Shown: one piece after another, positions 4,299 to 57,299 of the stretch
How positions within the stretch are numbered: the stretch's first letter is position 1
Layout of the letters: every line of letters begins with the position of its first letter
Assembly: GCF_035084215.1 (NCBI RefSeq)
Contig: NC_090358.1
Span: 6,882,001-6,946,000, forward strand
Reading direction: 5' to 3'
Length of the DNA stretch: 64,000 bases
Source of the DNA: Heptranchias perlo
Lineage: Eukaryota
Position numbers and translations under genes: made by a program
Notes under the pieces: model-generated
The model's input: only the letters and a program-made list of their open reading frames with translations
What the model was told of the DNA's origin: nothing
Databases searched by the model: none

Positions 4299-5149
4299 GG
4301 AAACAATTCACTGTGGTTTTACCTTAATGCTCTCACTCTATCGCTCACCCTGATTTAGCATTTCATGCATTTTAATTCTGAATCTGGATTAAAATTTTAT
4401 TATCTGGATTATACTAAACCAAGCATTAAAAATGAAAAGATATTCAGATGTGTCATTAATATAATTATTGGCACTCTTTTGGATCAAATATTCTTTTTTT
4501 CTTGGCTTTGCAGAAAGAACCCTTTCATCTCATCTGGCCTGTTGATCCCACTGTACACAGTAAATATTTTACATCAGTTCCACTCGGTGATCACACTTCT
4601 AGCCCTGTACTGCCATCATGTGGAACTCTGGGGTTGGTTCCAATCACCAGCTGCAGATATTTCAATCCGTTTCACGCTTAGCATTTTTTTCTGATTTTCC
4701 TCTCCTCTCCTCTCCTGAAGACACTTGAGTGTTGCTGACCTCCCAACAAGAGGTCCCTCCTTTGTATGTGAGCGTTGGCAGATGTAGCAAAGCATCACAG
4801 CTAAGCCTGTGCTGTCCTCACCCAATGTCCATGCACTTTTCAGGAGGGACTAACTTAATAACAAGCAGGAGCAAGAACCCCATACAAGGGCACTGAACCC
4901 AACTGTAGCCCTCCTACTGCTGCATAGGCAGAGATTAACTAAATCAGCACATATTGGGGATCAAACCTACGAGTTCTGTATGGCCTCACATTGCACCAAG
5001 CAACACACTTTCCCCTCGACCACCAGGGGAGCCTCTTATGTGTTTTTATGATCTTTTGCGTTTTAGAATTTTACAATATGACTTCCCATTGGCATCCCAT
5101 CACCGTATGGGGGAATCGCAGGCACGGACCCGCGTCCCACAGACATGGT

Positions 5150-34770: not shown

Positions 34771-37700
34771 CGGCAGGAGTAACTATGACTCTGATTCTGA
34801 CTACGAGAGTGGTTGCAGCAGTCCAGTTACATTGTGGGTAACTCTCTAGAAATCTCAGTTACCTCGTGGTCCCCTCGTGGACAACAATACGACTTTCGTG
34901 TTGGCTAAACTGACAGTTCAAAGAATTCTAACGCGATCTGCGGAGATCAAGTAGCCTATAGGAGAGGGGAAAATTATTTTAGAAAAACCTTTAGATAACC
35001 CCTCGGGGCATCTCATTCCGGTTGGGATACGGACCAGGCGAAAAACCCAGTGTGTTGCCAGTAGCACCCGGCGCCAAATGTACACGCTGCGACAAAGCTG
35101 GACCTGGATAGCGGTCACGAGCTCATATACACATACTTATGAGGAGGAATTTATTCAAATTATACCAATAGGAGTACCCAATCAAATTCCATCTCAGACG
35201 GTCAATTGATTTTGTGGTGGAGAAACAACTGGGTGACAACTCTTCCAGAGTACGAGGGAGAGCAACCCCTCAGAAATAATTCCTGTGGGGCATCGCAATT
35301 GATTCGTACAAAGATGTTTTATAATTCAGGTCTCAAAATTGCATCAAAGAAGTGGAATACTGAGGAAGGTGAGATAAACACTGTCGACTCCAATTTACCA
35401 AGTACAAGCACTCACTGCGCAGCAATAAGAATTGATCCCATTAATGTGCCCAATCAATTGAAGGAAGCTACCATTCATTAGCCTAATGATAGTCTATTAT
35501 GTGTATAATGTTACGAATACCTGGATTCATATACTATATTCAAAACACCAGGTTACAAAAATAACCACTACATGTACTAAATATAGTAGGAAAAGTGACT
35601 TCCATTCGATTGCCTGCCATTGCACTAAATGCGAAGGGCAGTGCCATGCTGCCTCTGTCGGCCAATTCAGTTGCACAGTGTCCTTTAAGATTTTCAGGAA
35701 AAATTGGTTGCGGCCAGCATGAGCGACATTTACACCCAGAACTTAGGAATAAGAAGAGTTGAGGATAGCATTCCTAAGAAAAAGACCAGTAAAAGATCGG
35801 TATGGTCCGAGGATGAAATAAGGAAGCTTGTTGAATTCGGGGCCAAATTTACAGGTCCCCGGAACATAAATAAAAGGATTAGTGAACAACTGAAGTCAAA
35901 AACAAATAAACGGATCTCCGATAAAAGGAGATTTCTTACTGCCAATGCAGAGCAGGTGAGGGAGGCAACAGTAAGTACATCAAGCGCAATAATAGAATTG
36001 AACGAATCGCTCGTGCGAAGAAAATCGAGAACTCACAACGCATTGTAGCGCTACTAACAATATCCAAACAGAAGATATTTTAAAGGGTAACACTCTCCAA
36101 CGTGACATCAATAATTTACTCTTGGATGCCGAACAATTATTAAAGTGTCGGCCTGATCCTGAGGCAGAAGCCCAGGTAATCAGACTTATTGAGGTTATTA
36201 CTAAAACAATTTTGGACAATAATAATAAACCATCTGGAAATAAAAAGACTAAGGGTTTTGTAAACAAGAATCAGAAGTACAAGCCCATTGTTAAAAAGAA
36301 ACTCCAGATCAACAAAATGATACGCTAGGAAACAAGCTGCTTTTATGAGAACGTAAACTCTATTTAAAAGCGATAGAAGAAAACTTGCTCGTCAGATAAT
36401 GGGCGGACCTGCGGGAATTAAATGCCCGTTAGGTAAAGCTGAACTTGATTCATGCTTTACAAATAAACTGTCAACTGTTAACAAGGCAGACATCAGTAAG
36501 TTCGTAAGCTGCATTCAGGCGGCTAATAACATCAATCTCACGAGAGCCAGTGAGAACAAAAAGAAATCTGCTCTCGAAAGCATGGTAGTTGGGAGTGCAC
36601 CAGGTCCTGAACGGAACTACGGTCGATGACCTTAAAGACTCGAAGGAGGGGACTCCACTTTATTACCAAGGCTCTTCTCACTTTGGCTTAAAACACCTAC
36701 TATCACGAAACTAATAAAAATGAGTAGAACGGCTCCGATACCAAAAAGTGAAGATACCGAACTTCTCAAGGACATAGGTAATTGGAGGCCAATTACAATT
36801 GGCCCAATGCTGCTTAGGCTTTTCAATAAAATCACTGCCAAAAATTTAGCTGACACCATTACCTTGAACCCTAGACAGAAAGGGTTCACTGCAACCAGAA
36901 TATTGCAAAACATTATAAAAGGAAGTACAACAGAAAACAGCTAGTCGTTGTTTTCGTAGACCTAGTTAAGGCCTTCGACTCTGTGGGACACAAGTTAATA
37001 TCAAAAGCATTAACACGGCTGGGACTAAGCAAGAACTTTATAAAATTGATAGAAAATCTTTACGTAAAGACAACAGTGATCAAAGGGGCGGGATTCAAAA
37101 CCAATCCAGTTAAAATTAGTAGGGGTGTCAAGCAAGGCGACCCCCTTATCTCCTCTTCTGTTTAATATCACTTTGGACCCCCTATTGTGCTCGTTGGAGA
37201 GGGCTGGCTGTGGCATTTGGATGAAGATTAGTGATGGGCATATCAAATGCACGTTGCTGGTCTTCGCTGATGATATCGCAATAATCAGTGACTCCCATTC
37301 AGGAATGGAGCTAAATTTAAAGATCCTCGAATCATTCTGCAAAAAAAAAAACCGCCTTCTGATCATTATCAGAAAAAACGCAGGATTTCATCTGTCCACA
37401 AAGAAAAAAAATCATTCGTATATAACTATGGCAAGAACCGGCAGTTGAATGGGAAAGATCTGGCATTTGTCGATCCCGGAAGTTTTGAGAAATATCTCAG
37501 CGCCAGAATAGATCCACGGGTTGGAATACCCGAGGATAGTCGGGCAGGAAAATTAGAAAACTGGATCCAAAATTTAAAGGAAACCGAACTCAAACCAAGT
37601 CGGAAATGTGAGATCCTCAAAAGCTTTATTATCGCCAGATTTTATTTTCATTTAACTTTAAAAGGAAGCCTCTCAAAATACATTGATGAATCTGGACAAT

Positions 37701-39187
37701 GTAGTTAAAAGGTCGGCAAAAGAAATACTACATTTACCCAATCACATCACTGATGGTTTGTTATATACTAAAAGCAGAATTGTGGGTCTTAGCTTACCCA
37801 AGTTCGAATTTCAGATTCCTTCTGCAATCGTGAGAAAGCTCGATGCCTTCAAGAAGTCAACTAATTCGATTTTAAGAGTGTCTTTTTTGTTCTATGGACA
37901 GGACAATCTCGGAAATATCGAAAGATTGAGGAACCTTAATGTGCTTAAAGAAGTATCCAATTATTCTGAACCATTAAGGAAAATGACCCTAGTAACATCG
38001 CAATTGGATCAGAAGTTAGTGACACTGAAGAACAAGTTGGGAATTTGATTCCCCGCCCCCCCACCCCCCCCGAGCTGTGGAAGGAGAAAAATAAAACATC
38101 TATGCCCATTGGAGGAACTTTAAATGTTATAAATGGTCCAATTTACAATATCAGGGTTCTGGCATAATGACATAATCGCGAATAATTGGGTCAGGCGCAA
38201 TATCGGTATGAAACAATCTCAATTTATTAATGCTCTTTTAATTAGATCTAACCAATACCCCACCAGATACACCTTATCCCTTGGAAGACCCACGGCAATG
38301 AGAACATGCAGGAAGTGTGACTTGGCTAATGAAACAATGGTCGATGTCCCTCAGTTAAGAACGCAAGGATAAAAAGACACAACATAATCCTTGAGCAACT
38401 GAAGAACAACTGTCTGTGGTTAGGCATCGTATCTAGAACCCAGAATAAAGTCAGCCGATGGCAATCTGTGGAAACCAGATATAATCTTTCGTAAAGGGAA
38501 TGGTTTTATAATGGTCGATGTAACCGTTAGATTCCAAGACAGCAATAAATCACTCGAGGTGGCTTGGACTGAGAAACAGGATAAATACAGAATGTTGGCA
38601 TTTGCTATTAAAGGCCTTACTGGCCGAGAGACTATAAAAGTTTTTGGCTTTGTAATGGGTGCCTGGGGAAAATGGTTCAAAAAAAATAACTGATGAAATT
38701 CCTCAAAATTGACCACTATAAAACTTGTGTGTGTAGAATTTCAAGGCTCACAGTGCAGCTTACACCGGACATTTTGCATATTTTTATGAACTTAATATAT
38801 TGTTTTTATATATTTTTTTAAAAATAGATTTAACATGTTTTATAATTTTTGTATGTTATATTTTAAGCAGTCCAATTTTTATTTATATGATTTTAATTAT
38901 TTTATTATGCTATATTTTAATGTTGCGATTTTAATTATTTTATCTATTTGATATTTTATTAAACGGAATACAAAATTCCAGTTTATCTCCCTTGAGTAAT
39001 CCAATGCTTGGTGTTATTCTGTGACACCTCCTTTTATATCACAACGGCCTGTCTTCCCTCTCCCTATACACCAGCTGCTCCCCCTTGTCTGAGATATTTC
39101 GCCGGAATTGACATAGTGGACAAGCCACTTAAACACTTGAAATATACACTCATTTAATGGATTTTGATTCCAAGAGTGTACTTAAAG
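34771..39187 (+). mobile_element. R2 non-LTR retrotransposon (R2-A-like), both ends present, inactivated
   Basis: Fragments in order: three decayed Zn fingers (35500-35740, including HSIACHCTKC and GCGQHERHLHP), Myb (KRSVWSEDEI...KTNKRISDKRR), RT (SAPGP, NWRPITIG, LNPRQKGF, DLVKAFDSV, GVKQGDPL, FADD), CCHC-like CRKC..NET, and restriction-like endonuclease (KPDII..MVDVTVRF..EKQDKY); many stops and frameshifts; 28S-like 5' leader. Confidence 0.93.
34772..34913 (+). ncRNA. Degenerate HDV-like R2 ribozyme with 28S-derived leader
   Basis: P2 TCAGTT (34855) pairs with AACTGA (34908); P3 ACC-TCGT-GGT; P4 hairpin CAACA..ACGA-CTT-TCGT..TGTTG; J4/2 GCTAA; L3 and P1 are decayed. Confidence 0.65.
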
Positions 39188-42916: not shown

Positions 42917-43120
42917 TCATTTACTGTCCTCTTGCAAATCAGCAGGCCAGTACCGGTCATCCATGTAGTGATTGACGTCAGAGTTTGTTTCAGAAGCCGT
43001 GTGTTCCTGTTCCGCCGACAACTGACTGCACAGTTTTTGTTCCCACGGGATCTCCACCAGTCGGTACAACTCCATCGAGGTGCAGGCATCCTCAACAGAA
43101 CAGTGCCCATCTCTGCCAAC
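42917..43120 (-). CDS. AEN: AEN coding exon 3
   Basis: VGRDGHCSVEDACTSMELYRLVE (ExoIII) and the AEN-type C-terminal YMDDRYWP motif; total 390 aa. Confidence 0.93.
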   Translation of the reverse strand, partial: VGRDGHCSVEDACTSMELYRLVEIPWEQKLCSQLSAEQEHTASETNSDVNHYMDDRYWPADLQEDSK

Positions 43121-43932: not shown

Positions 43933-44330
43933 GTCAGCAATGGCCCTATCCGTAGCACTGAGCCAGAAGGTTGTGGGTTTAAGCCCCACTCCAGGACCTG
44001 AGCACGTAATCGAGGCTGACATTTCAGTGCAGTATCGAAGGGGTGCTGTATGTCGGAGGTGCTGGGTTTTATTTTTGGACAAGAAGTTAAACTGAGGCCC
44101 CGTCTGCCTGTTGAGGTGGACAGACCATTCAAAGCCCAGGGAGTTCTCCCACAGACTCGGCCAACATTTATCCCTCAACCAAAAAAAATAATCCACGGGC
44201 CACTTCTTTGTGGGAATTGGCTACTGCATTTACCTACATAACAGTGACTGTACATTAACAGTAACCCACTGGCTGTGAAGTGGGCATCGCAAGATTAAAA
44301 GCACGATATAAATGCAATTTATTTCTTTAT
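43933..44330 (+). mobile_element. Deu-domain SINE copy in AEN intron
   Basis: Collinear with the 10024-10475 copy. Confidence 0.7.
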
Positions 44331-44556
44331 TCTTGTAAATCTCAGCTGCAGGGCAAACTCCACGGCACGTGGACACTGCAGTTTTCTAATCGATGGACTT
44401 TCCTAGCTGGCTAGGGGAAGCACCAAGTAGGAAATGGAACCACATCGCCAGCCTGGGCGGGTCAAATACTCCAGCAGGGGAAAAGCTCTCACTCCCAACA
44501 GACAGCAGCTTAACTTAATTCCCGGAGCAAAAGAATCAGTCGGTTCTTGTACTCAC

Positions 44557-44757
44557 CTGGATGTTTTTGTGCAGAAGCTGCTTCGCCAGATTCTTCAGGG
44601 ACACGGACTCTCTTTCTGGAAACCCAGCCTTCCTCTTCAACATTGGAATTCTACTCGTGTCCCTCGTCAGAGATTTCGGGTGAAAATACTTCAGTGCTTT
44701 AAAGTCGTTGTGCAGTGCGTGACCCACCACAATTTTACCCTTCAGGATCTTCAATAT
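44557..44757 (-). CDS. AEN: AEN coding exon 2
   Basis: TTCCATTCAG| acceptor; [27 protein letters not shown]...LLHKNIQ; 201 nt; CAG|GTGAGT donor. Confidence 0.93.
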
Positions 44758-46434
44758 CTGAATGGAAACACAAGTTAGAAATGTAACTGTTGCAATAAAT
44801 TATGAATCTATCTGTCTGATTTAGTTTCCCCATCCCAAGTCAGTGTTGCACAGAGGGAGTTCCTTCATCGTCGCTGGGTCAAAATCTTGGAATACCCGAC
44901 ATAACAGCACTGTGGGAGCCCTTTCACCACACAGACTGCAGCGGTTCAAGAAGGCAGCTCACCACCACCTTCTCAAGGGCAACGAGGAATGGGCAATAAA
45001 TGCCGGCCTCGCCAGCGACGCCCACATCCAGAGAATGAATTTTTTAAAAAGTTATTTCTGTGCGGATGTGTCTGTATGGTCTTTTTTCCTGGCTGATAGT
45101 CACATCCTGCAACAAGATAGGTTATATTTCATTGACAGCACTGCCGACCACTGGGTTTTGTTTATTCCAATAAAAACATGGCGACAGCCCCCCCGCAGAC
45201 TCACCCTCCCTCCCTCCCTCCCTCGCAACCCCACCTCTATCCTGACCTTCAGACCCGGACGAATCCCTCCACGCACAGGCCCAGCCCCAATCAGGTCCAC
45301 ACCTGTCGCTGGAGTCGTGCTTACCTGCCTGACTGCTCCACTCCCCGAGAGACGTCACAAGACGACATTAATAAATGCTTAAAACAACAAACTTCTCCTA
45401 TTAACCTGCGTACGGTGTCAGAGTGTCTTATCGACACCGATATCACGATTTAAATTGTGAGCTTATTTTAGTTTCATTGGACTTGATGTTTAATTATATT
45501 AGTGGTGCCTCCTCAGTTTGAGGGGACGCTTGTACAGTTGCCTGTTAATGAGACTGGGGCAATCCAGCGGCACCTCTGTTGGTTCATTTAAAATAGGCAA
45601 CTGAAGCTCCTCCTTCTCTACAAACTCCACATTTAAATATCAAGGTGAATGACATCATCAGACAAGGTTCAACCTCAAAAGGACGATGTTTGTTTGTTAT
45701 AGTTGGATTTTTATAGTTATCAATTGAATTAGGAATTCAATGGGGAAATGTGTGCTCACCCTCCAGGGATCTGGGTTCCAAAAACTAGCAGATCCCTCCA
45801 GATATTCTCTCCATCCCAATTGTTCTTGACTCAATTTTATCGACACTATATTTTTGCTCGGAACGTTCCACTTTTGTTCCTCCCAAGCCTGAAGTACTCA
45901 ATCATACACACACTCTTCCTCCTCACTGGGTTAAGATCACCATCGCACCAGCTCCTAATATAACTCACACTTTGCAGGGACTTCAAATCTGAAAAACTCC
46001 TCAGTTTCCCCAACATTTTAAAACCCGAACTTGGTGTCAGCTAATCACTGCTTCTCCATTCGCTACATCATCTCTTCTACTCCTTGTCAACCTTGGTGCT
46101 CTGGGCTTTAGTCCTTCAAGTGGATTTTCAGTTTCAAAAAGACTGCGGCTGTAAACGCAGATAATTGATGTTGCACTGTTCATGTTATTTATGTAAAAAA
46201 TATCCCAGCAGCATTGTTGGCCCATCCTGCTTTTCCAAATACTGACTGACTTATGTTTGGCTCCTTTATCCCAAAAGCAGAACTGTAGATTCACAAACAC
46301 GGATCGGAATATTACAGGCATAAACTCCTGTGGCATTGCTCGTGGAGAATTGCCGTGTCGCTGTTTTATAACAATAGGTGTCGTACACAAAGCGTGACAG
46401 AGAAGCATTGCAGGAAGTAAACACGACACTTAAA

Positions 46435-46810
46435 AGAAAGACTTGAATTTATATAGCGCCTTTCACGACCTCAGGATGTCCAAAGCGCTTTACAGCCAAA
46501 TAGGTACCGCAAACAGCAATGTGATAATGACCGGATAATATGTTTTAGTGATGTTGGTTGAGGGATAAATATTGGCCTGGACACCGGGGAGAACTCCCCC
46601 GCTCTTCTTTTAAATAGTGCTACGGGATCTTTTACATCCATCTGAGAGTGCAGACGGAGCCTCAGTTTAACATCTCAGCTGAAAGACGGCATCTTCGGCA
46701 GTGCAGCACTCTCTCAGTATTGCACTGGGAGTGTCAGCCTAGATTTTGTGCTCAAGTCTCTGGACCCATGACCTTCTGACTCAAGGAGGTAAGAGTGATG
46801 CCAACTGCAC
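46435..46810 (-). mobile_element. Deu-domain SINE copy in AEN intron
   Basis: Collinear with the 10024-10475 copy; further partial copies at ~19140-19440, 40365-40690, 48405-48730 and 58700-59045. Confidence 0.75.
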
Positions 46811-46884
46811 TCTTACCTCTGAGTGCGTGCAGTACACAAGACTTAACACAGTCTATGGATCATTACATACTCCCGTTCACTCAC

Positions 46885-47652
46885 CTCCCTCTGTGCAACA
46901 CTGAACACGATGGCACTCGCCATGTGCTGCTTTCGGATGCCGCTCCACCGTGTCCGGTAGTCGGCGATGGGAAGCCCCGGCTTCACGTACTTGTCGTAGA
47001 CGACGTCGCCCTGATAGTTGACGATGCTGCACCTGGCCACTTCGCCGAGGCGCCCGCCGGGGCCTGTGCCCACCATCTCGCAGTCGATCGCCACGCACTT
47101 GGCGGCCTTGCGACAGAAGCTTGGCGGGCTCACTGGGCGGGGGGTCACCGCAGCCGCGGCCAGCGAGAGTTCACCGGGGTTCGCGAGAGCCAGTGCGTCT
47201 GCCATTTGTGCCGGGGGGTCCCTCTTGCTGGCGGACTTTGGAAATATGGTAGGGTGGCCGTTTTCCACTTTAGGCTGGGGGACACCAGACAAGGTGGAGT
47301 GATTCCCATCTACATCAGAACGGCACGGCCGCTCGGCTTTTCTAGACTGAACCGTGCAGTTTGGTTTCTTGGAGCGTGGGCGCCGAGGTCGGTCGGCCAG
47401 CCCTTCCTTCCCTTTGAACCGTCTCTTCTTCAGGATCCCTTCTCTCTCCAGAAACGCCTTCCGCTCCCGGAAGCGTTCGTGCCTCCGGCTCGGCTTCTTC
47501 TTGCGCTTCCCGGACCGGCTGTCGGAGCAGCCGGGGCCCGGCGTCGAGCCAGGCGTGCAGCCGAGGAACTGGGCCGAGCTGGAGAACCCGTGGAACCGCC
47601 GCCTGGCGGCCGGGGAAGCAAGGTCCACTCTCGCGTCGGCCACACTCGGCAT
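46885..47652 (-). CDS. AEN: Apoptosis-enhancing nuclease, coding exon 1
   Basis: Basic NLS/NoLS-like N-terminus ([28 protein letters not shown]) then [26 protein letters not shown]; acceptor at 47691-47692, in-frame TAA just upstream of the ATG; GAG|GTGAGT donor. Confidence 0.92.
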
Positions 47653-47789
47653 CTTTTAATCACAGCTGGAGTGCGGGGGCCTCTCGGAACCTGGAAAACA
47701 GAAGAAACTTTTAATCCCAGGGGAGAGTCGCAGCAATAATCTAACATGGTGCACCACAGAATGCTGACGCACGGTGCTGCACCTTTTTT

Positions 47790-48170
47790 TTAAAAATTCG
47801 TTCATGGGATGTGGGCGTCGCTGGCAAGGCTGGCATTTATTGCCCATCCCTAAATGCCCTTGAGAAGGTGGTGGTGAGGCGCCTTCTTGAACCGCTGCAG
47901 TCCGTGTGGTGAAGGTTCTCCCACAGTGCTGTTAGGAAGGGAGTTCCAGGATTTTGACCCAGCGACGATGGAGGAACGGCGATATATTTCCAAGTCGGGA
48001 TGGTGTGTGACTTGGAGGGGAACGCGCAGGTGGTGCTGATCCCATGTGCCTGCTGCCCTTGTCCTTCTAGGTGGTAGAGGTCGCGGGTTTGGGAGGTGCT
48101 GTCGAAGAAGCCTTGGCGAGTTGCTGCAGTGCATCCTGTGGATGGTTCACACTGCAGCCACAGTGCGCCA
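47790..48170 (-). mobile_element. 3' fragment of the same CR1-group LINE, in AEN intron 1
   Basis: MHCSNSPRLLRQHLPNPRPLPPRR..., near-identical to 8230-8600. Confidence 0.85.
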
Positions 48171-48821
48171 GTAGTTCATCACCCAGCGAGACCCTGATTT
48201 GAAACGTGCCACCCGTGGGAGGTGCTGATATAGAAAGAAAAAAGGCCCGATCGTTTGATCTACAATTGGGACCCTCAATGCCTCAGAGCTCTTGGGTTTG
48301 GGAAGGAAACGTCCGGTGCACATTAGCGATGCTAAACACTAGTAAATGGAATATTTCCCAGGAGCAGGCTCAACTATGCGTCTGCCCGGGGTTCAATAAG
48401 AATGTCAGCCTTGGCTCAGTCGGTAGCACTCTCACCCGAGTCAGAAAGTGGCGTGTTCAAGCCCCGCTTCAGGATTTGAGCTCCTAACCGCGGCTGGCAG
48501 GCCAGTGCAGTGGAGAGGGAGTGCTGCATTGTCAGGAGGTGCCGAGATGTTGCGTTAAACCAAGGCTCGGGTAGATGAGAAGATCCTGCGGCACTATTTG
48601 AAGAGCAGAGAAATGCCCTGGCCAACACGGCCAAAACCAAAAAAAAGAGATCATTAACGTCATCGGTGTTTGTGGGGTTTTGTCTGCAAAACAAGTGACA
48701 GCAATTCAAAAGTAATCTATGGTCTGCGCGCACTTTTGGATGTTTGCATTTATATAGCGCCTTTCACAACCTCACAAAGCGCTTTACAGCCAATGAATTA
48801 CTTTAAGCAGTGTTCAAGCCC

Positions 48822-49369
48822 CAGGTGAGGGGTCCGGGGAGTGGGACAGGTGAGGGGGCCGGGGAGTGGGACAGGTGAGGGGGCCGGGGAGTGGGACAGG
48901 TGAGGGGGCCGGGGAGTGGGACAGGTGAGGGGGCCGGGGAGTGGGACAGGTGAGGGGGCCGGGGAGTGGGACAGGTGAGGGGGCCGGGGAGTGGGACAGG
49001 TGAGGGGGCCGGGGAGTGGGACAGGTGAGGGGGCCGGGGAGTGGGACAGGTGAGGGGGCCGGGGAGTGGGACAGGTGAGGGGGCCGGGGAGTGGGACAGG
49101 TGAGGGGGCCGGGGAGTGGGACAGGTGAGGGGGCCGGGGGAGTGGGGCAGGTGAGGGGGCCCGGGGAGTGGGACAGGTGAGGGGGCCGGGGGAGTGGGGC
49201 AGGTGAGGGGGCCGGGGAGTGGGACAGGTGAGGGGGCCGGGGGAGTGGGGCAGGTGAGGGGGCCGGGGGAGTGGGGCAGGTGAGGGGGCCGGGGGAGTGG
49301 GGCAGGTGAGGGGGCCGGGGGAGTGGGGCAGGTGAGGGGGCCGGGGAGTGGGACAGGTGAGGGGGCCGG
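48822..49369 (+). repeat. G-rich ~25-bp minisatellite (GGGACAGGTGAGGGGGCCGGGGAGT) x ~22
   Basis: Direct reading; interrupts a minus-strand SINE (48745-48812 / 49370-49545). Confidence 0.95.
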
Positions 49370-49671
49370 AACATTCTCTGCTCTTCTTCCTGAGGGGGGC
49401 AGACGGGGTTTAACGTCTCATCTGAAAGTCGGCTCCTCCGGCAGTGCAGCGCTCCCCCAGAACTGCTCAAGGCTCGGGAGTGGGGCCCGAACCCACGACC
49501 CTCTGACTCAGAGGCGAGCGCGGGACTCGCTGAGCCACGGCGGACACCTAACGGAGGCTCGGGGCCTCAGCCTGTGGAATCTCCTCTTCCCCCCAGGAGA
49601 GAGAGGCCCCCGGGCCGGCCCGCTCACTGAGGCAGTGTCGCGAACTCTATTCCTGGGTTAGGATGATCCAG

Positions 49672-50395
49672 GCCCCCGGCCCCCCGCACTCCCCCGGCCC
49701 CCCGCACTCCCCCGGCCCCCCGCACTCCCCCGGCCCCCTCACCTGCCCCGATCCCCGGACCCCGGGCCCTCACCTGCCCCGATCCCCGGGCCCTCACCTG
49801 CCCCGATCCCCGGACCCCGGGCCCTCACCTGCCCCGATCCCCGGACCCCGGGCCCTCACCTGCCCCGATCCCCGGACCCCGGGCCCTCACCTGCCCCATT
49901 CCCCTGACCCCGGGCCCTCACCTGCCCCGATCCCCGGACCCCGGGCCCTCACCTGCCCCGATCCCCGGACCCCCTCACCTGCCCCATTCCCCGGGCCCCC
50001 TCACCTGCCCCACTCCCCGGGCCCCCTCACCTGCCCCACTCCCCGGGCCCCCTCACCTGCCCCATTCCCCGGGCCCCCTCACCTGCCCCATTCCCCGGGC
50101 CCCCTCACCTGCCCCATTCCCCTGACCCCGGGCCCCCTCACCTGCCCCACTCCCCGGGCCCCCTCACCTGCCCCATTCCCCGGGCCCCCTCACCTGCCCC
50201 ATTCCCCGGGCCCCGGGCCCCCTCACCTGCCCCATTCCCCTGACCCCGGGCCCTCACCTGCCCCGATCCCCGGGCCCCGGGCCCTCACCTGCCCCGATCC
50301 CCGGGCCCTCACCTGCCCCGATCCCCGGTCTCCGGGCCCTCACCTGCCCCGATCCCCGGACCCCGGGCCCTCACCTGCCCCGATCCCCGGTCTCC
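49672..50395 (-). repeat. 24-33 bp minisatellite (GGGGCAGGTGAGGG... on minus strand) x ~23, inverted relative to 48822-49369
   Basis: 23 TCACCTG cores counted between 49739 and 50377. Confidence 0.95.
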
Positions 50396-50670
50396 GGCCT
50401 CTCCGCTGCCGCCCGGCGCCACGTGTATCTCGGGCTCCACCTTCTCCTGCTGATTGGTCCATTCGCTTGCACCGTCCCGCCTCTCTCTCACTCTCATTGG
50501 CTGTACGGCAGCCACTGACAGACCAATCTAGCGTCTTATTGGCGGCAGTTTCTTTTAACGTCATAAAGGATGGCTGCGTCACAAGTGGGGGCGTTTAAAA
50601 AAGCGACAAGAGGCAACCGGAGCAGGGCGGATACTCGCGGGCCAACGACAGCGCCACCCAGCGGCCGGAG
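50375..50670 (-). promoter_or_regulatory. Probable AEN CpG promoter and non-coding first exon
   Basis: CpG-rich; CACGTG at 50420; four CCAAT/ATTGG boxes in 50452-50543; GC boxes; CTCF-like CAGCGCCACCCAGCGGCC at 50649-50666; first donor CAG|GTGAGG at 50375/50374. Confidence 0.65.
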
Positions 50671-52949
50671 GACAAAACAAGGGACTGGGCAGAGCTCCAT
50701 AATACTTTAGGGTAGAGCTGACAGCTTGAGCTAATACACAGGGGGTCAGATATTTGATTTATGAGATAACCTGACGATGAACTATCTTTATCTCTAAATA
50801 AGGAGTCAGGAAAGGGAAACCTTATTGCTCAAATCTGCTCAGGAACATAGCAACAGGAGAAGGCCATTCGGCCCCTCGAACCTCTTCCACCTTTCAATTA
50901 GACCATGGCTGATGTGTGTCATCATCCTAAAACTTGACCAGTTTACGTCGTTTCTGAATCCAGGACGTTTCTGTAAATTATAAACATTTGCAAGAGGCTG
51001 TGGATGCTCAGTCATTGAGTATATTCAAGACTGAGATCGATGGATATTTGAACACTAAAGAAATCGAGGGACATGGGGAAAGGGCGGGAAAGTGAAGTTG
51101 AGATAGAAGATCAGCCATGATCTTTTTGAATGGCGGAGCAGGCTCAAGGGGCTGTATTGCCTACTCCTGCTCCGATTTTTTAATGTTATGTTCTTATTAG
51201 GGGTCATGGCACCAACCCCTGAGAAATTCCACTCCTTACTTGACCACACACTAACACCGAGTCACAATGAGTCTAAAGCACAGAAATAGGCCATTCGGCC
51301 CAACCGGTCCAGGCTGGCGTTTATGCTCCACACAAGCCTGCTCCCTCCCTACTTCATCTAACCCTATCAGCATAGCCTTCTATTCCTTTCTCCCTCATAT
51401 GCTTATCTAGCTTCCCCTTAAATGCATCTATGTTATTTGCCTCAACAACTCCTTGTGGTAAGGAGTTCCATATTCTTACTACTCTTTGGGTAAAGAAGTT
51501 TCTCCTGAATTCCCTATTGGACTAACATTTCACTTTTAATAACCACCCCTTGCTTCCTTTCAGCTACTTTCTTATCCATTCCCAAATTTTATTTTGAATT
51601 CCCTGTGCTTCGAGTTTATGAAGCAGCCTTTGTCAAAGAATTTCTAGAAGTCCAAATACATCATGTGATAAGGTTTACCACAGGCCATTTGATGTTTCAC
51701 CTCCTCAAAAAAGGAGGTGAAGTTGAAACAGGAATACCAGCGAATATATCCCACAGGGAATCCTGCAAATCCGTATTCTTTCTGTCTGGACACCAATCTA
51801 CATGTATCGAAGTGCAAACTTTGAGTGCCACTTGGATACTGCTGTGTAGAATTTTAACATGAACTAAATGAGGGGCAGCGGCATACTTTATCAGACGCAT
51901 GTTAGGAATTGGTGCTCTCAACACAGAATTCCGTGTGATGGAAGTACGTGTCAGGAATTCAGGTGCGGAGGTCAACGAGCCGTGCACAATTCCCCCAACA
52001 TTAATTTTAATGACAGAAAATCATGCAGGGTGCAGACCCCTATGACTGAATTTGTGATTTGCACTCCCGTCGGCATGAAATTCTACACCAGGAAAGAAAA
52101 AAGAAAGACTTGCATTTATATGGGCGACATGGACATGTTGGGCCGAAGGGCCTGTTTCCATGTTGTAACTTCTATGATTCTATGATTCTATATATCGCCT
52201 TTCACGACCTAAGGATGTCCCAAAGCCAATGAAGTACTTTTTGAATTGTAGTCACTATTGTAATGTAGAAAAACCAGGAGGACTAATTGATAACATCTAC
52301 CCCAATATTGAAAGTACACAGGAGTAGGCCATTCAGCCCCTGAAGCAACTCATAGTTGATCTATACCTTAAACCCATTTACCTGGCTTTGACCCATATCC
52401 CTTGATACCCTTACCCAACAAAAATCTCCAAATGTTTTTCATTTCCTTTAAGTAGCATTTACACTCACTGCGATCTTCTCCCAGCCGTATGCGTACACCG
52501 CCCCTTAAAGGGGGCACTGCCTCCATTGGAAAGCATTTGGTGTGACCTTCCAAGGCTGTTCGGCAGCATGAGACTGAACAATGCAAATGTGGGGAAACAC
52601 CATCGGTTCAAGCAAGTATTGTTTGCACGTGATTAAAATGATGCATTGCTATTCTGGACTGTTTGACATCCCTTGTCCCCTCTCAAAACCCACTTGAATC
52701 TTTTTTTTAAACCAGATCTTTCAGGGCAGTAGGACAATACAGTTATTGGACAATAGGTGTCACCATTGTAACTTGGAGATTGTTGCTGTTGTGGATGATC
52801 CAATCTTTTCATGCCCAAGTCTTTCCATTCACACACACACACACAAGTACTCAACATCCCTCATTACCCCATACAGTTCCCACATTACAATTCCTGTCAC
52901 CTGCCTGGCCGCGCTTTGTAAGTGAATTGTTGCTCTGGAACACATTTTT

Positions 52950-53510
52950 TAACAGCAACAACTTACATTTATATTGCTCCTTTAATGAAGTAAAACATCC
53001 CAAGGCATTTCACACGAGCGATTATCAAACAAAATTTTACACCGAGCCACATAAGGAGACATTAGGACAGGTGACTATAAGCTTGGTCATAGAGGTAGGT
53101 TTTAATGAGCATCTTAAAGGAGGAGAGAGAGAGAGGTAGAGAGACGGAGAAGTTTAGGGAGGGAATTCCAGAGCTTAGGGCCTAGGCAGCTGAAGGCACG
53201 GCCGCCAATGATGGAGCGATTAAAATTGGGGATGCGCAAGGGGCCAGAATTAGAGGAACGCAGAGATCTCGGAGGGTTGCAGGGCTGAAGGAGGTTACAG
53301 AGATAGGGAGGGGCGAGGCTTTGGAGGGATTTGAAAATGAGGATGAGATTTTTTTTAAATCGAGGCTTTACCGGACTGGGAGCCAATGTAGGTCAGCGAG
53401 CACAAGGGTGATAGGGTGAACGGGATTTGGTGAGAGTTAGGATACGGGCAGCAGAGTTTTGGATGAGCTCAAGTTTGCAGAGGGTGCAAGATGGGAGGCC
53501 GGCCAGGAGA
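52950..53510 (-). mobile_element. L2-type LINE 3' end
   Basis: ILIFKSLQSLAPPYLCNLLQP...GGRAFSCLGPKLWNSLP; same family as 8727-9180. Confidence 0.85.
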
Positions 53511-55267
53511 GCATAAATGGACAGATTACAACAAGCTGATGTAATAAGTTCTCCAGTCCAAAGGGTCAGTTAAAATTAATTGTTAAAGAGTTTATATTAG
53601 CCATACAGACCACAAAGGTCTCAAGTTTGATATCCAGTCTGCGAAGAGTGAGTTGAACTCATTTGAGACAGCAATAGAGGCATCGTAATTAGTCTCAGCG
53701 TCCATGGGCTAGAGAGCAAAGGAAAAGATCAGCCCGAGTTCCCATCGTCACTGTTTGACTTGACAGAGTTTTATGAGTCACCCCCAATAGTGTCGCCTGT
53801 AAATGCACTGCCCATTGTGTAACTGAGTGATACAGACCAGATACTAGTGACGATCCTTGGTTTATACCGTTAGCTGAGTTCAGCTGGGGCAGGAGAGGAG
53901 GCAAATCAGAAAAAAAATGGCAGGAAATGCACAGTAGCTGAAGAATTATCTGAGAGATGGAGATAGGTTAATATTTCAGGTGTGAGACGTCACCTTTGCA
54001 TTTTCTGCTCGACTGTTGCCATCAGTTTCTCCCCCGTTCTCTTCCCTGAAGATGCCAACTCTCACTGGGCATGGATTACATGGGCATGGAAACCTTCATA
54101 CAACTCAGCCAAGTGGCCATTCTTCACGGGTGAACCGAGACAGGGATCAGCGGCAGGCTATTCAACCTTGGTTGGCGTCACAGCTGATCCCGATCCTAGG
54201 AACATTAGGAACTGGAGTAGGCCATTCAGCCCCTCGGGCCTGCTCCGCCATTCGATTAGATCATGGCTGATCTGCACCTCAACTCCGTTGTCCGCCTTTG
54301 CTCCGTATCCCTTGATACCCTCACCGAGCAGAAACGAAAACACTGTATTATCCTGTTCTCATTTTGCATCCACACACACGCGCCCATTCCAGAAGTATTG
54401 GGGTCAGGGGCTGGAAAGCCCGGCTGACTTTCCACTCCCTATCCCGAGGGCACTGGGGCTGACATGCTGGCCGAGACCAGTTAACTCCGCGCGGATCAGG
54501 GAATGGAACCTGGGACCTTTCTGGCCTGCCCTGCTAGATTACTCGTTGCCTTCATTGACCAAGCGTGTTTATTTTCTCAGACTTCCAGCATAGGAGGTGT
54601 CCCTTTCATCTGTGCAGATAAAAGTATATCCCGGAGCACACCCTACCCTGATTGTGAGACTCACTTATCTCTCTAATCATTGCTGTAATAATTTGCCTGG
54701 ACCTTGACTTTTTAATTTAATGTTTTGTGCTGTGCGATATTCGTGAAAGCACGCAACTCCTTTTAACACCTATAATGGTTTCCCCCACTTTGTGAGTAAT
54801 AGGGTGGGGTGCCCTTTGAGCTGAAATCTCACCATGGGTCTAATTGTAGCCTGCTTTCAACTCTGTTGAAATATCATCCACTTACTGCTGTTTGCTATAC
54901 AAAATAAATATAAATTAAATTGCAGTGACTCACAAATATTTAAAAGTACAGTTCTGTGCAGTAGGAGCTGGCACCCTGGGGTTCAGTGGGTTAATATACA
55001 CCCTGTGTAGCACTGACTGACATACACTAGGAAAGCGAAGGAACTTGCACAGTCTTCCATCTTTTATGTATGAAAATTAAAAGATTGAAGTCATCCATCC
55101 ATCCTTTATGCACATTAGACGCAGCATGTTTAAAAAGATGCTAGCCTGGAAGCTTTTTAATTTTTAATATAACTCATTCTGACGTTGTAAAAATGCATTC
55201 AAAGATCCATAAAATTCAGAGAGGAAAAACTAAAAAATATTGCTTAAAAAGCAAGATATAAAACATA

Positions 55268-55440
55268 CCGGCTGTCTGCCTCTCTTCTGTGTCATTCTCC
55301 GCACCCGGGTGGCCCTGGAGAAAGAGCACGCCGCGGTATCTGCTGGCACGCTTGAGGCTTTCTGCGACCGGTGGGCACCGTAGGGACTGGTGAGCATAAT
55401 AGGCACGGACAATAAAATTATTATTTAATTGATTTTTTTT
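55268..55440 (+). mobile_element. L1/Tx1-clade LINE 3' end fragment
   Basis: Reads RTRVALEKEHAAVSAGTLEAFCDRWAP then AATAAA, typical of Tx1-like ORF2 termini. Confidence 0.55.
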
Positions 55441-57299
55441 AATTGATCTGTCAAGGTGACATGGGTGGCCCCAGAGTCATCAAAGAAAAGGGGTACATGT
55501 ATATCTAACTGCCCCCCACCCCACCTTTTTAAGGGGTTTAAGCTAAAAAAAAACCCCACCAGAAATACGACTTTGGGCCCTGCCGCCCTTAAAATTCAGG
55601 CATAAATTTACGCGTGTACAGAACGGGCATAAATGCAGGAAACTCGCGTTCTCTGGTCTTTTGTATGGGGGCGGGGCTATGTTAATGAGCGGTGGGGGGG
55701 GTTTCGGCGGAGGGTTCACTGAATCGGCGCAAAAGATTGTGGAAATTTGGACATAGCGCACGTCACTAACGCCCGAATTTCCTCGATCAATTTGAACCGA
55801 AAATCAGCTTTGCAGCATAGTTACACCGTTGTTTCGGCACAAGTGTCCGGGACATTCCGGACACAAGAGCTCAAATTCTGGGGCGGGGCTTGAACGCTGC
55901 ACCCTCTGACCCAGAGGCAGGAACACAAGCACAGGACGGATTACTCACATGCTTGTCTCCACTTTTGTTTCTGAAGCCTTTAATTCCCATTAGGGCCCTG
56001 CTGTTTTAATTACTCTATTTTAGTTCTGAAGTAAAATCACCACCATTCAGTTTTGAGCAGGTTATCCAGACATTTCTAAAACATGAAAGCAGGAATGGAT
56101 GGGGTTTAATTTCCTTTTGTAGTTAAGTTGTTCACATAAAATTCTTTTGTGCTTTATTTAACACAGCCGTTAAAATCTTAGTGGATTATTGACTAAGTTA
56201 AAATAACACACAAAGGAATGTTATTCAAATATATTAACTAGTGCACCACCAGCTAGAGTAAACGGCACAAAAGTATCGTTTTTAATGGACGTCTTGTATC
56301 TAAACTTCTGTGCCTCATGATTTGTAACCATTAATTATTCTTCCCCAATTAGTTGGTTGATAAATGCACTGACCCACACAGCCGGGATTGGCCCAGATTT
56401 GATTTTTTAAATTATTTTTCTTGGGATGTGGGCGTCGCTGGCGAGGCTGGCATTTATTGCCCATCCCTAATTGCCCTTGAGAGGGTGGTGGCGAGCCGCC
56501 TTCTTGAACCACTGCAGTCCGTGTGGTGAAGGTTCTCCCACAAAATGCTGTTAGGTGGGGAGTCCCAGGATTTTGAGCGAATCTGTGATGAGCTAGCTGA
56601 TCTCAACTGAGACAACAACCATGGCTCAAGTTGGCCTCAGCACCCCTAGGCTAGGGAGAAAGGATTAGAAAGTTGGTCAAAGTTCCTGCTCCTGATCCTT
56701 GCTGGAATTTGCACGTGTGTAGACAGTGAGCAAGGACATGATCGGACGCAAGGGCATGGAAGGCTGTCACTACCCACGGAATCGTAACCCCAGAATGTCA
56801 ACATCTTTAGGAGGGGAGATGAGAAAATGGGAGAAGGGAAAAATAGTAACTGGAAAAGGATTGCAACTAACTTTCAGCAGCAGCAAAGCAAACATCAGAA
56901 TTCAAGCCATGATCCTGCTCTCCTGTGTTTAAAATAAGAAAAGGATTTGGTGGGGTAGATACAGAGAAGCTATGCTCTCTGAAGGGGGAATCCAGGGAAT
57001 AAGGCAGCACAATCTTAAAATCAGAGCTAGGTCATTCAGGAGAAAAATCAGAAGGCACTTTTTCACACAAAGGGTAGTGGAAATCTGGAACACCCTTTCC
57101 CCCAAAAGGCCGTGGACGCTGGGTCAATTGGAGCTTTCAAGACTGAGATGAACCGATTGCTTTTATTAGGGAAGGGTAGCAAGGGATATGGATGACCGGC
57201 CAGTAAATGGAGGCGAGGCACACGGTCTCATTGAATGGTGAAGCAGGCTGGAGGGGCCGAACGACCTCCTTCTGTTCCCAACCCAAACCAACCCAACCC

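Follow-up and report, generated by a model that had tools for sequence, protein, structure and literature searches.

The AEN-like gene and its two repeat arrays

The DNA analysed here (the window) is a stretch of 64,000 nucleotides from Heptranchias perlo (assembly GCF_035084215.1, contig NC_090358.1, positions 6,882,001 to 6,946,000), and positions given without a further label refer to it. On the minus strand it carries a gene of the apoptosis-enhancing nuclease (AEN) type. The putative promoter of this gene stops just ahead of a tandem array of splice donors (array 1), and a second array (array 2), which is the reverse complement of the first, begins ~300 nt (~310 bp) beyond array 1 on the AEN pre-mRNA. 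The features are listed in the order of transcription.

50400-50600, minus strand: putative promoter, TATA-less and in a CpG island, with TGACG sites and an E-box at 50425 (motif search)
50375-50420, minus strand: putative non-coding exon 1 of ~43-46 nt with its terminal CAG at donor 1 (length from the contig of run X8, placement presumed)
49728-50397, minus strand: array 1, GGGGCAG/GTGAGG in 23 copies (slash, splice site) with a period of 24-33 bp, the RNA strand G-rich, in two sub-families, with an ATG in units from the fifth on (Tandem Repeats Finder, TRF, and core counts)
49673-49738, minus strand: mini-array of 18-bp units, 3.7 copies, an outgrowth of array 1 at its final unit
49545-49672, minus strand: single-copy spacer (one match genome-wide, itself)
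49370-49545, minus strand: 5' part of a SINE, diverged (alignment)
48822-49369, plus strand: array 2, 22 units of 25-26 bp, antisense to array 1 on the pre-mRNA
48810-48821, minus strand: 12-nt junction piece, identical to 48453-48464, possibly a second templated snippet (weak, the word being SINE-like)
48744-48809, minus strand: 3' part of the same SINE copy (alignment)
46885-47690, minus strand: AEN exon 2, with the acceptor at 47690 and the ATG at 47652 (809 nt without a difference in contigs of runs X5 and X8)
44557-44757, minus strand: AEN exon 3 (GT-AG, open frame)
42917-43120, minus strand: coding portion of AEN exon 4 (four-exon model)

The four-exon model encodes 390 aa and contains three introns, all GT-AG. 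Exon 2 codes for 256 aa, including the start of an RNase_T domain (PF00929, E 7.7e-07), and matches at 100% identity a Heptranchias perlo protein of 390 aa that carries the label apoptosis-enhancing nuclease-like; the top hits are named AEN-like. Judged by its domain and nearest relatives, the host gene is AEN-like and belongs to the AEN/ISG20L2 DEDD exonuclease class. The promoter region has CCAAT boxes at 50542, 50500 and 50457 and an inverted copy at 50527, with a CpG o/e of 0.92 and a GC content of 0.59 over 50400-50700. A search for p53 sites returned no strict element in 44000-56000 and no exact half-site in 46000-53000. Elsewhere in the window, 37025-38048 holds broken open frames that by eye resemble a non-LTR retrotransposon reverse transcriptase.

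The preliminary description of this DNA had reported ~23 donors followed by a ~22-unit antisense array, and the counts agree: 23 CAGGTGAG cores run from 50377 to 49745 on the minus strand with a period of 24-33 bp (array 1), and 22 run from 48822 to 49354 on the plus strand with a period of 25-26 bp (array 2). Each core of array 1 is preceded by GGGG, and CAG/GTGAGG is present in 23/23 units. TRF delimits array 1 at 49728-50397 with 86% matches and gives 21.6 copies with 97% matches for array 2. Without gaps, the inverted arms extend over at most 217 nt at 77%, or over 114 nt at 93%. Array 1 lacks the main unit of array 2 (25 bp, with GGGA), and array 2 lacks the 31-bp unit of array 1. The likeness of the two arrays is nonetheless not due to chance, judging from exact matches of 27 and 36 nt between them and from the confinement of their common unit to one locus (7/7 genome matches fall at AEN, none elsewhere). 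A dispersed repeat family was rejected on the same confinement, though the GGGGCAGGTGAGGG core of the unit recurs elsewhere. The potential for G-quadruplexes noted earlier is borne out by 21 motifs, and the long ORFs spanning the arrays are repeat-derived. The unit may resemble the classical G/C-rich minisatellite core of humans.

Donor choice at the 47690 acceptor

Four runs (X5, X8, X9 and X16) were compared with 46800-48880, two of which (X5 and X8) are presumed to be RNA and come from one sample. The X5 and X8 contigs matched exon 2 without difference over 46885-47693 and then departed from the genome sequence, as expected for an upstream exon that ends in CAG preceded by a base other than C (letters deduced). 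Since the exon would end in CAG and no CAG/GT occurs outside array 1 between 50773 and the 47690 acceptor, the donor in use very likely lies within array 1. Contig 17 of X8 continues for 40 letters past 47693 along one path and so includes 43 nt of the upstream exon; this extension fits donor 1 (5' end at 50417) and would also fit donor 2 (start near 50386). The X5 contig reaches 6 nt into the upstream exon, and branch points are expected at 7 or 16 nt. Across the final 59 bases of array 2 the depth was 0-1.4 in X5, X8 and X16 and 6.9 in X9, which is uninformative.

From a start at 50420, donors 1-5 would give leaders of 84-201 nt that contain no ATG, and across all donors the leaders would range from 84 to 716 nt. 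With donors 6-23 the leader would gain 1-8 upstream ATGs, of which the four listed per donor have G at both -3 and +4, and several of these ATGs start frames that overlap the AEN start, so that a wrong choice of donor would likely cost protein.

Minisatellites with their first unit across an exon-intron boundary are described in the available text of PMC1557585 for F7, 6-16, CBS, LMNB2 and PDGF. In F7 IVS7 (37 bp, 5-9 copies) only the first donor is used; a masking structure was sought there and none was found, and position decides. As cited in the same text, the first three donors are used in 6-16 (25 pseudo-sites) and in CBS IVS13 (15-20), and only the first in LMNB2 and PDGF. At AEN the units fall within 10-100 bp and each carries a 5' splice site (23/23). 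The earlier proposal that the repeat is an amplified exon 1/intron 1 junction is supported, and array 1 reads as a junction-reiterating minisatellite of the F7/CBS/6-16 type with a likely inverted daughter array. It shares with the five genes of PMC1557585 a reiterated exon/intron junction, near-identical 5' splice sites and a similar copy number; it differs from them in following a likely first, non-coding exon, in its G-run-rich units and in the upstream ATGs added by later donors. The AEN intron further carries an antisense array, and the available text of PMC1557585 describes none for its five genes. For human genes, PMC10078293 compiles the ways in which repeats affect splicing; its available main text contains neither 'complementary' nor 'secondary structure'. 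Donor arrays as such are not undescribed, being known from five human genes (PMC1557585); among the literature titles and abstract openings surveyed, none describes an array of donors paired with an antisense one.

Donor choice could instead produce a ladder of 5' UTR lengths, in which several donors would be used, upstream ORFs would lower AEN translation from donor 6 onward and a foldback between the arrays would set the proportions. Such a ladder would exploit the stepwise lengthening of the leaders from 84 to 716 nt, and in 6-16 and CBS two donors beyond the first are used, according to the available text of PMC1557585. The X8 contig, however, follows one path for 43 nt, beyond the 16-nt point at which donors 1 and 2 would branch; the X5 contig stops at 6 nt, at neither branch point (7 or 16). 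Contigs drop rare forms, so that further donors may still see minor use. We regard the ladder as quite improbable.

Origin of the antisense array

Array 2 stands in place of ~125 bp of a SINE, presumably of HE1 type, the 5' and 3' parts of which flank it in order when aligned to other SINE copies in the window. According to the preliminary description, array 2 interrupts the SINE and so is younger than it; the younger age was upheld, and replacement of part of the element takes the place of a mere interruption. Array 2 is also likely the younger of the two arrays, being the more uniform (97% vs 86%). At one junction CCGG is shared and CTCCCCGG occurs in two other SINE copies, a weak signal, since a short microhomology carries little weight in GC-rich DNA; the 12-mer of the other junction recurs 357 bp further on. 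A 27-nt exact match to the terminal unit of array 1 (49749 onward), the one nearest to array 2, occurs at three places in array 2, and the 36-nt exact match links array 2 (49137) with a unit in the middle of array 1 (50044).

An exact inverted template close by, together with a deletion and (weak) microhomology at the junction, characterises a templated inverted insertion, and we consider array 2 a likely by-product of DNA repair that began as such an insertion and later expanded. A single terminal unit of array 1 would have been copied in inverted orientation into the neighbouring SINE by microhomology-mediated template switching, with deletion, and the insert would then have expanded independently into the 22-unit array. 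Short templated inverted duplications have been described in yeast (PMC11724301). In the available text of that study they resemble the AEN event in the short (~5-34 bp) inverted copy of a nearby sequence and in the junction microhomology; at AEN the template lies ~375 bp away, a deletion accompanies the insertion and the inserted copy likely expanded to 22 units.

A coupling of the two arms at the DNA level would make a different use of the same matches. In that case a single-stranded DNA hairpin would form, quasi-palindrome template switching or gene conversion would partly homogenise the arms and match their lengths, and RNA would play no role. The 36-nt match is off the foldback register by at most one or two units and the arms are of similar length, but the match rests on one variant base, the 25-bp GGGA unit of array 2 and the 31-bp unit of array 1 are not shared, and similar copy numbers are found in ~1/10 of arrays (21-24 copies in 7/70 complete arrays of period 18-40). 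We judge such coupling improbable. That the inversion is an assembly artefact, or that the arrays are the arms of a Foldback-type transposon, appears extremely improbable. GC-rich tandem arrays are hard to assemble, yet an artefactual mirror would be exact, whereas the longest exact match is 36 nt, the units differ systematically and both SINE parts stand in order around array 2. Foldback (FB) transposons have arms built of tandem repeats, and the AEN pair shares with them inverted tandem-repeat arms around a short spacer. It differs in having no target-site duplication (the longest word shared by the outer ends is 4 nt), no other copies (unit and spacer are single-locus) and a SINE straddling one arm, the right, and a Foldback transposon was rejected on these grounds.

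Inverted units were also sought in other arrays of the same genome. The control sample comprised 100 stretches (994 kb), 40 beside the window and 60 elsewhere mostly picked for donor-like arrays, and is non-random; it yielded 129 array rows, among which 21 are truncated where a stretch ends and a number belong to one satellite. Inverted copies of at least one unit were found in 4/129 rows, representing three events: one inverted unit adjoining an array (L161:7159-7186), two inside an array (L156:6793-6832) and ~3.5 adjoining an array (L153:6880-7240). Single inverted 14-mers in L141, L142 and L148 were set aside as chance. The three events likely represent early stages of an AEN-type event. 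Seeding by inverted copies recurs in this genome and does not depend on splice sites. The grown form is rare: 0/129 control rows have a fully expanded antisense partner some way off. Beside the window, 12 rows were counted in 400 kb, a density that corresponds to tens of thousands of arrays genome-wide, so that rarity in the sample does not by itself imply selection. Two minisatellites of 87% GC (36- and 30-bp units; L063:246-2575 and L063:9361 to L064:320) lie 50-60 kb from the window and are without inverted partners.

Predicted foldback and donor arrays with and without a partner

The RNA fold was predicted for 50430-48780 (~1.6 kb) at equilibrium, a calculation that ignores proteins, timing and, for the two-array fold, G-quadruplexes. 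The predicted minimum energy was -1387.7 kcal/mol with array 2 and -485.2 kcal/mol for array 1 and spacer (-698.8 kcal/mol when G-quadruplexes were allowed), in line with the earlier suggestion that the arrays can form a GC-rich foldback. In the lowest-energy fold 21/23 donors are paired to array 2, namely donors 2-23 bar one, and donor 1 is not; in the ensemble, donors 2-18 and 21-23 pair with array 2 at 0.93-1.0 and donor 1 at 0.0, and donor 20 is predicted to be looped out. Array 2 nevertheless lowers the probability that donor 1 is unpaired from 0.87 to 0.24, the site being 76% paired with the SINE flank as its partner, and the penalty for pairing donor 1 with the last antisense unit is only +6.3 kcal/mol against a total of -1388 kcal/mol. 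Opening a site would cost 6.9 kcal/mol at donor 1, 7.5 at donor 5 and 12-29 at four other tested donors. As predicted, the foldback is very stable and does not single out donor 1. The proposal that it hides the redundant donors is best served by the predicted pairing of donors 2-23 (bar one) to array 2, but donor 1 is not cleanly freed and would open about as readily as donor 5. Array 2 starts 1.0 kb past donor 1 and ends 1.1 kb ahead of the acceptor, so that the modelled duplex could form before splicing, yet after U1 access; U1 may bind donor 1 before array 2 is transcribed.

Pairs of inverted Alu elements form intronic inverted-repeat RNA duplexes. The predicted AEN foldback would likewise be a long, imperfect, intronic dsRNA that might undergo editing and affect access to splice sites; unlike in Alu pairs, one arm consists of splice donors, and arms made of tandem arrays can pair in several registers. 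A stable duplex over splice sites, as in a splice-regulating duplex, is found at AEN by prediction only.

Several other donor arrays in the genome are relevant to whether a mask is needed. The GGGGCAGGTGAGGG core forms arrays at seven places, AEN and six others (L108, L128, L129 and L130, which were examined, and two on small contigs). L128:4628-5334 (G000:C9, ~70,432,200-70,432,900) has 13 CAG/GTGAG donors directly after a candidate first coding exon, which we assume to be ACBD6-like; its open frame gives a partial ACBP match below the curated cut-off. At L130:6889 to L131:1629 (G000:C22, ~156,900-161,500) a CpG-rich stretch and an ATG precede 4.6 kb of G-rich array that holds 145 CAGGTGAG cores. 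At L111:4801-6381 (G000:C6, ~728,600-730,200) the end of a candidate exon, presumably ANKRD50-like, is repeated 43 times, with a frame change near 4911-4917. L129 has a GGGGCAGGTGAGGG array without an evident exon, and many other donor-like arrays have no upstream exon. Around L128, L130/L131 and L111 (10-20 kb examined) CTCACCTG is absent, and the predicted openness of pseudo-donors versus the first donor of these candidate exons is 0.65 vs 0.75, 0.58 vs 0.70 and 0.30 vs 0.34, respectively. A different arrangement is present at L108:4683-5449 (G000:C7, ~5,124,300-5,125,050), where a 23-copy, 32-bp array begins ~23 nt past an exon end of a CYP27A1-like gene. The units combine a donor with its own anti-donor in a hairpin (CTCACCTG-GGG-CAGGTGAG), with 13 TCACCTG, 7 TAACCTG and 3 TCATCTG for 20 CAGGTGA, and the predicted unpaired probability is 0.16 for the pseudo-donors and 0.38 for the donor at the exon end. 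Pfam returned no match for the L108 and L111 exons, and PDB none for L108.

Array 2 could be a functional mask under selection, in which the modelled foldback would hide the pseudo-donors from U1, keep donor 1 available and bar the upstream ATGs. The 22 antisense units for 22 pseudo-donors, the near-complete predicted pairing of donors 2-18 and 21-23 to array 2, the upstream ATGs that donors 6-23 would add, the position of array 2 ahead of the acceptor, which would permit a duplex before splicing, and the built-in anti-donor of L108 all point in this direction. Against it, donor 1 is kept off array 2 by only a few kcal/mol and is largely paired with flanking SINE sequence, opening is predicted to be about as easy at donors 5 and 20, and array 2 emerges 1.0 kb past donor 1, when U1 may already have bound. 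That masking is needed also finds no support in F7, where no masking structure was found (available text of PMC1557585), or in the three other shark donor arrays, which are predicted to be open and are without a partner. We therefore consider a selected mask unlikely. Distinctly unlikely is a broader version, a self-made antisense mask, in which, once a donor has been amplified, selection would recruit an inverted unit and match its copy number so that every pseudo-donor is paired and only the first left free, at AEN as a separate array (22 for 22) and at L108 within the units.

We favour the reading that the array pair is a tolerated by-product and that donor 1 is chosen by position (probability about 0.65). 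It draws on F7, which uses its first donor unmasked, and on L128, L130/L131 and L111, which are without an antisense partner; array 2 would probably not be needed for correct splicing. Donor 1 would be chosen as the most upstream, cap-proximal site, as in F7, and the array pair would be tolerated as nearly neutral. The cap-binding complex is reported to favour U1 at the cap-proximal site (Lewis 1996, cited in PMC7462061). The absence of a grown partner from all 129 control rows, the match of 22 antisense units to 22 pseudo-donors, the predicted lowest-energy fold that takes up donors 2-23 (bar one) and leaves out donor 1, the upstream ATGs and the anti-donor at L108 speak against a by-product.

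If the pair is neutral, the locus offers a clean view of a minisatellite seeding an inverted daughter array; shark genes would then tolerate tens of repeated donors, and the first-donor rule of F7 would extend to cartilaginous fish. If a mask proved true, it would be a new form of compensation for repeat expansion at splice sites, and under an antisense mask the balance of copy numbers would tune the choice of donor and the upstream ORFs. By prediction one genome holds both masked (AEN, L108) and unmasked (L128, L130, L111) arrays, a natural test of whether a 5' splice site is chosen among identical donors by position or by RNA structure.

Donor-like arrays are common in this genome. Overlapping triplet matches of CAGGTGAG number 11,615 genome-wide, against 9,214 for the backwards control, and further donor-like arrays compared with their backwards controls gave 266 vs 184, 70 vs 6, 104 vs 14, 249 vs 7 and 44 vs 397. 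These counts are of overlapping matches, most of which come from a few large arrays, and the 249 stem mostly from one dispersed 33-bp family; enrichment over the controls is mixed, and we claim none. The dispersed 33-bp element accounts for most of the 100 listed among those 249 matches; on many contigs (e.g. L162-L167) an open frame in this element runs into a 33-bp tandem repeat with a perfect CAG/GTAAGT. At L109:4800-5590 (G000:C10, ~85,758,700-85,759,500) a CCAAT/CpG promoter is followed by a G-rich AG/GTGAGC array that ends at a run of N.
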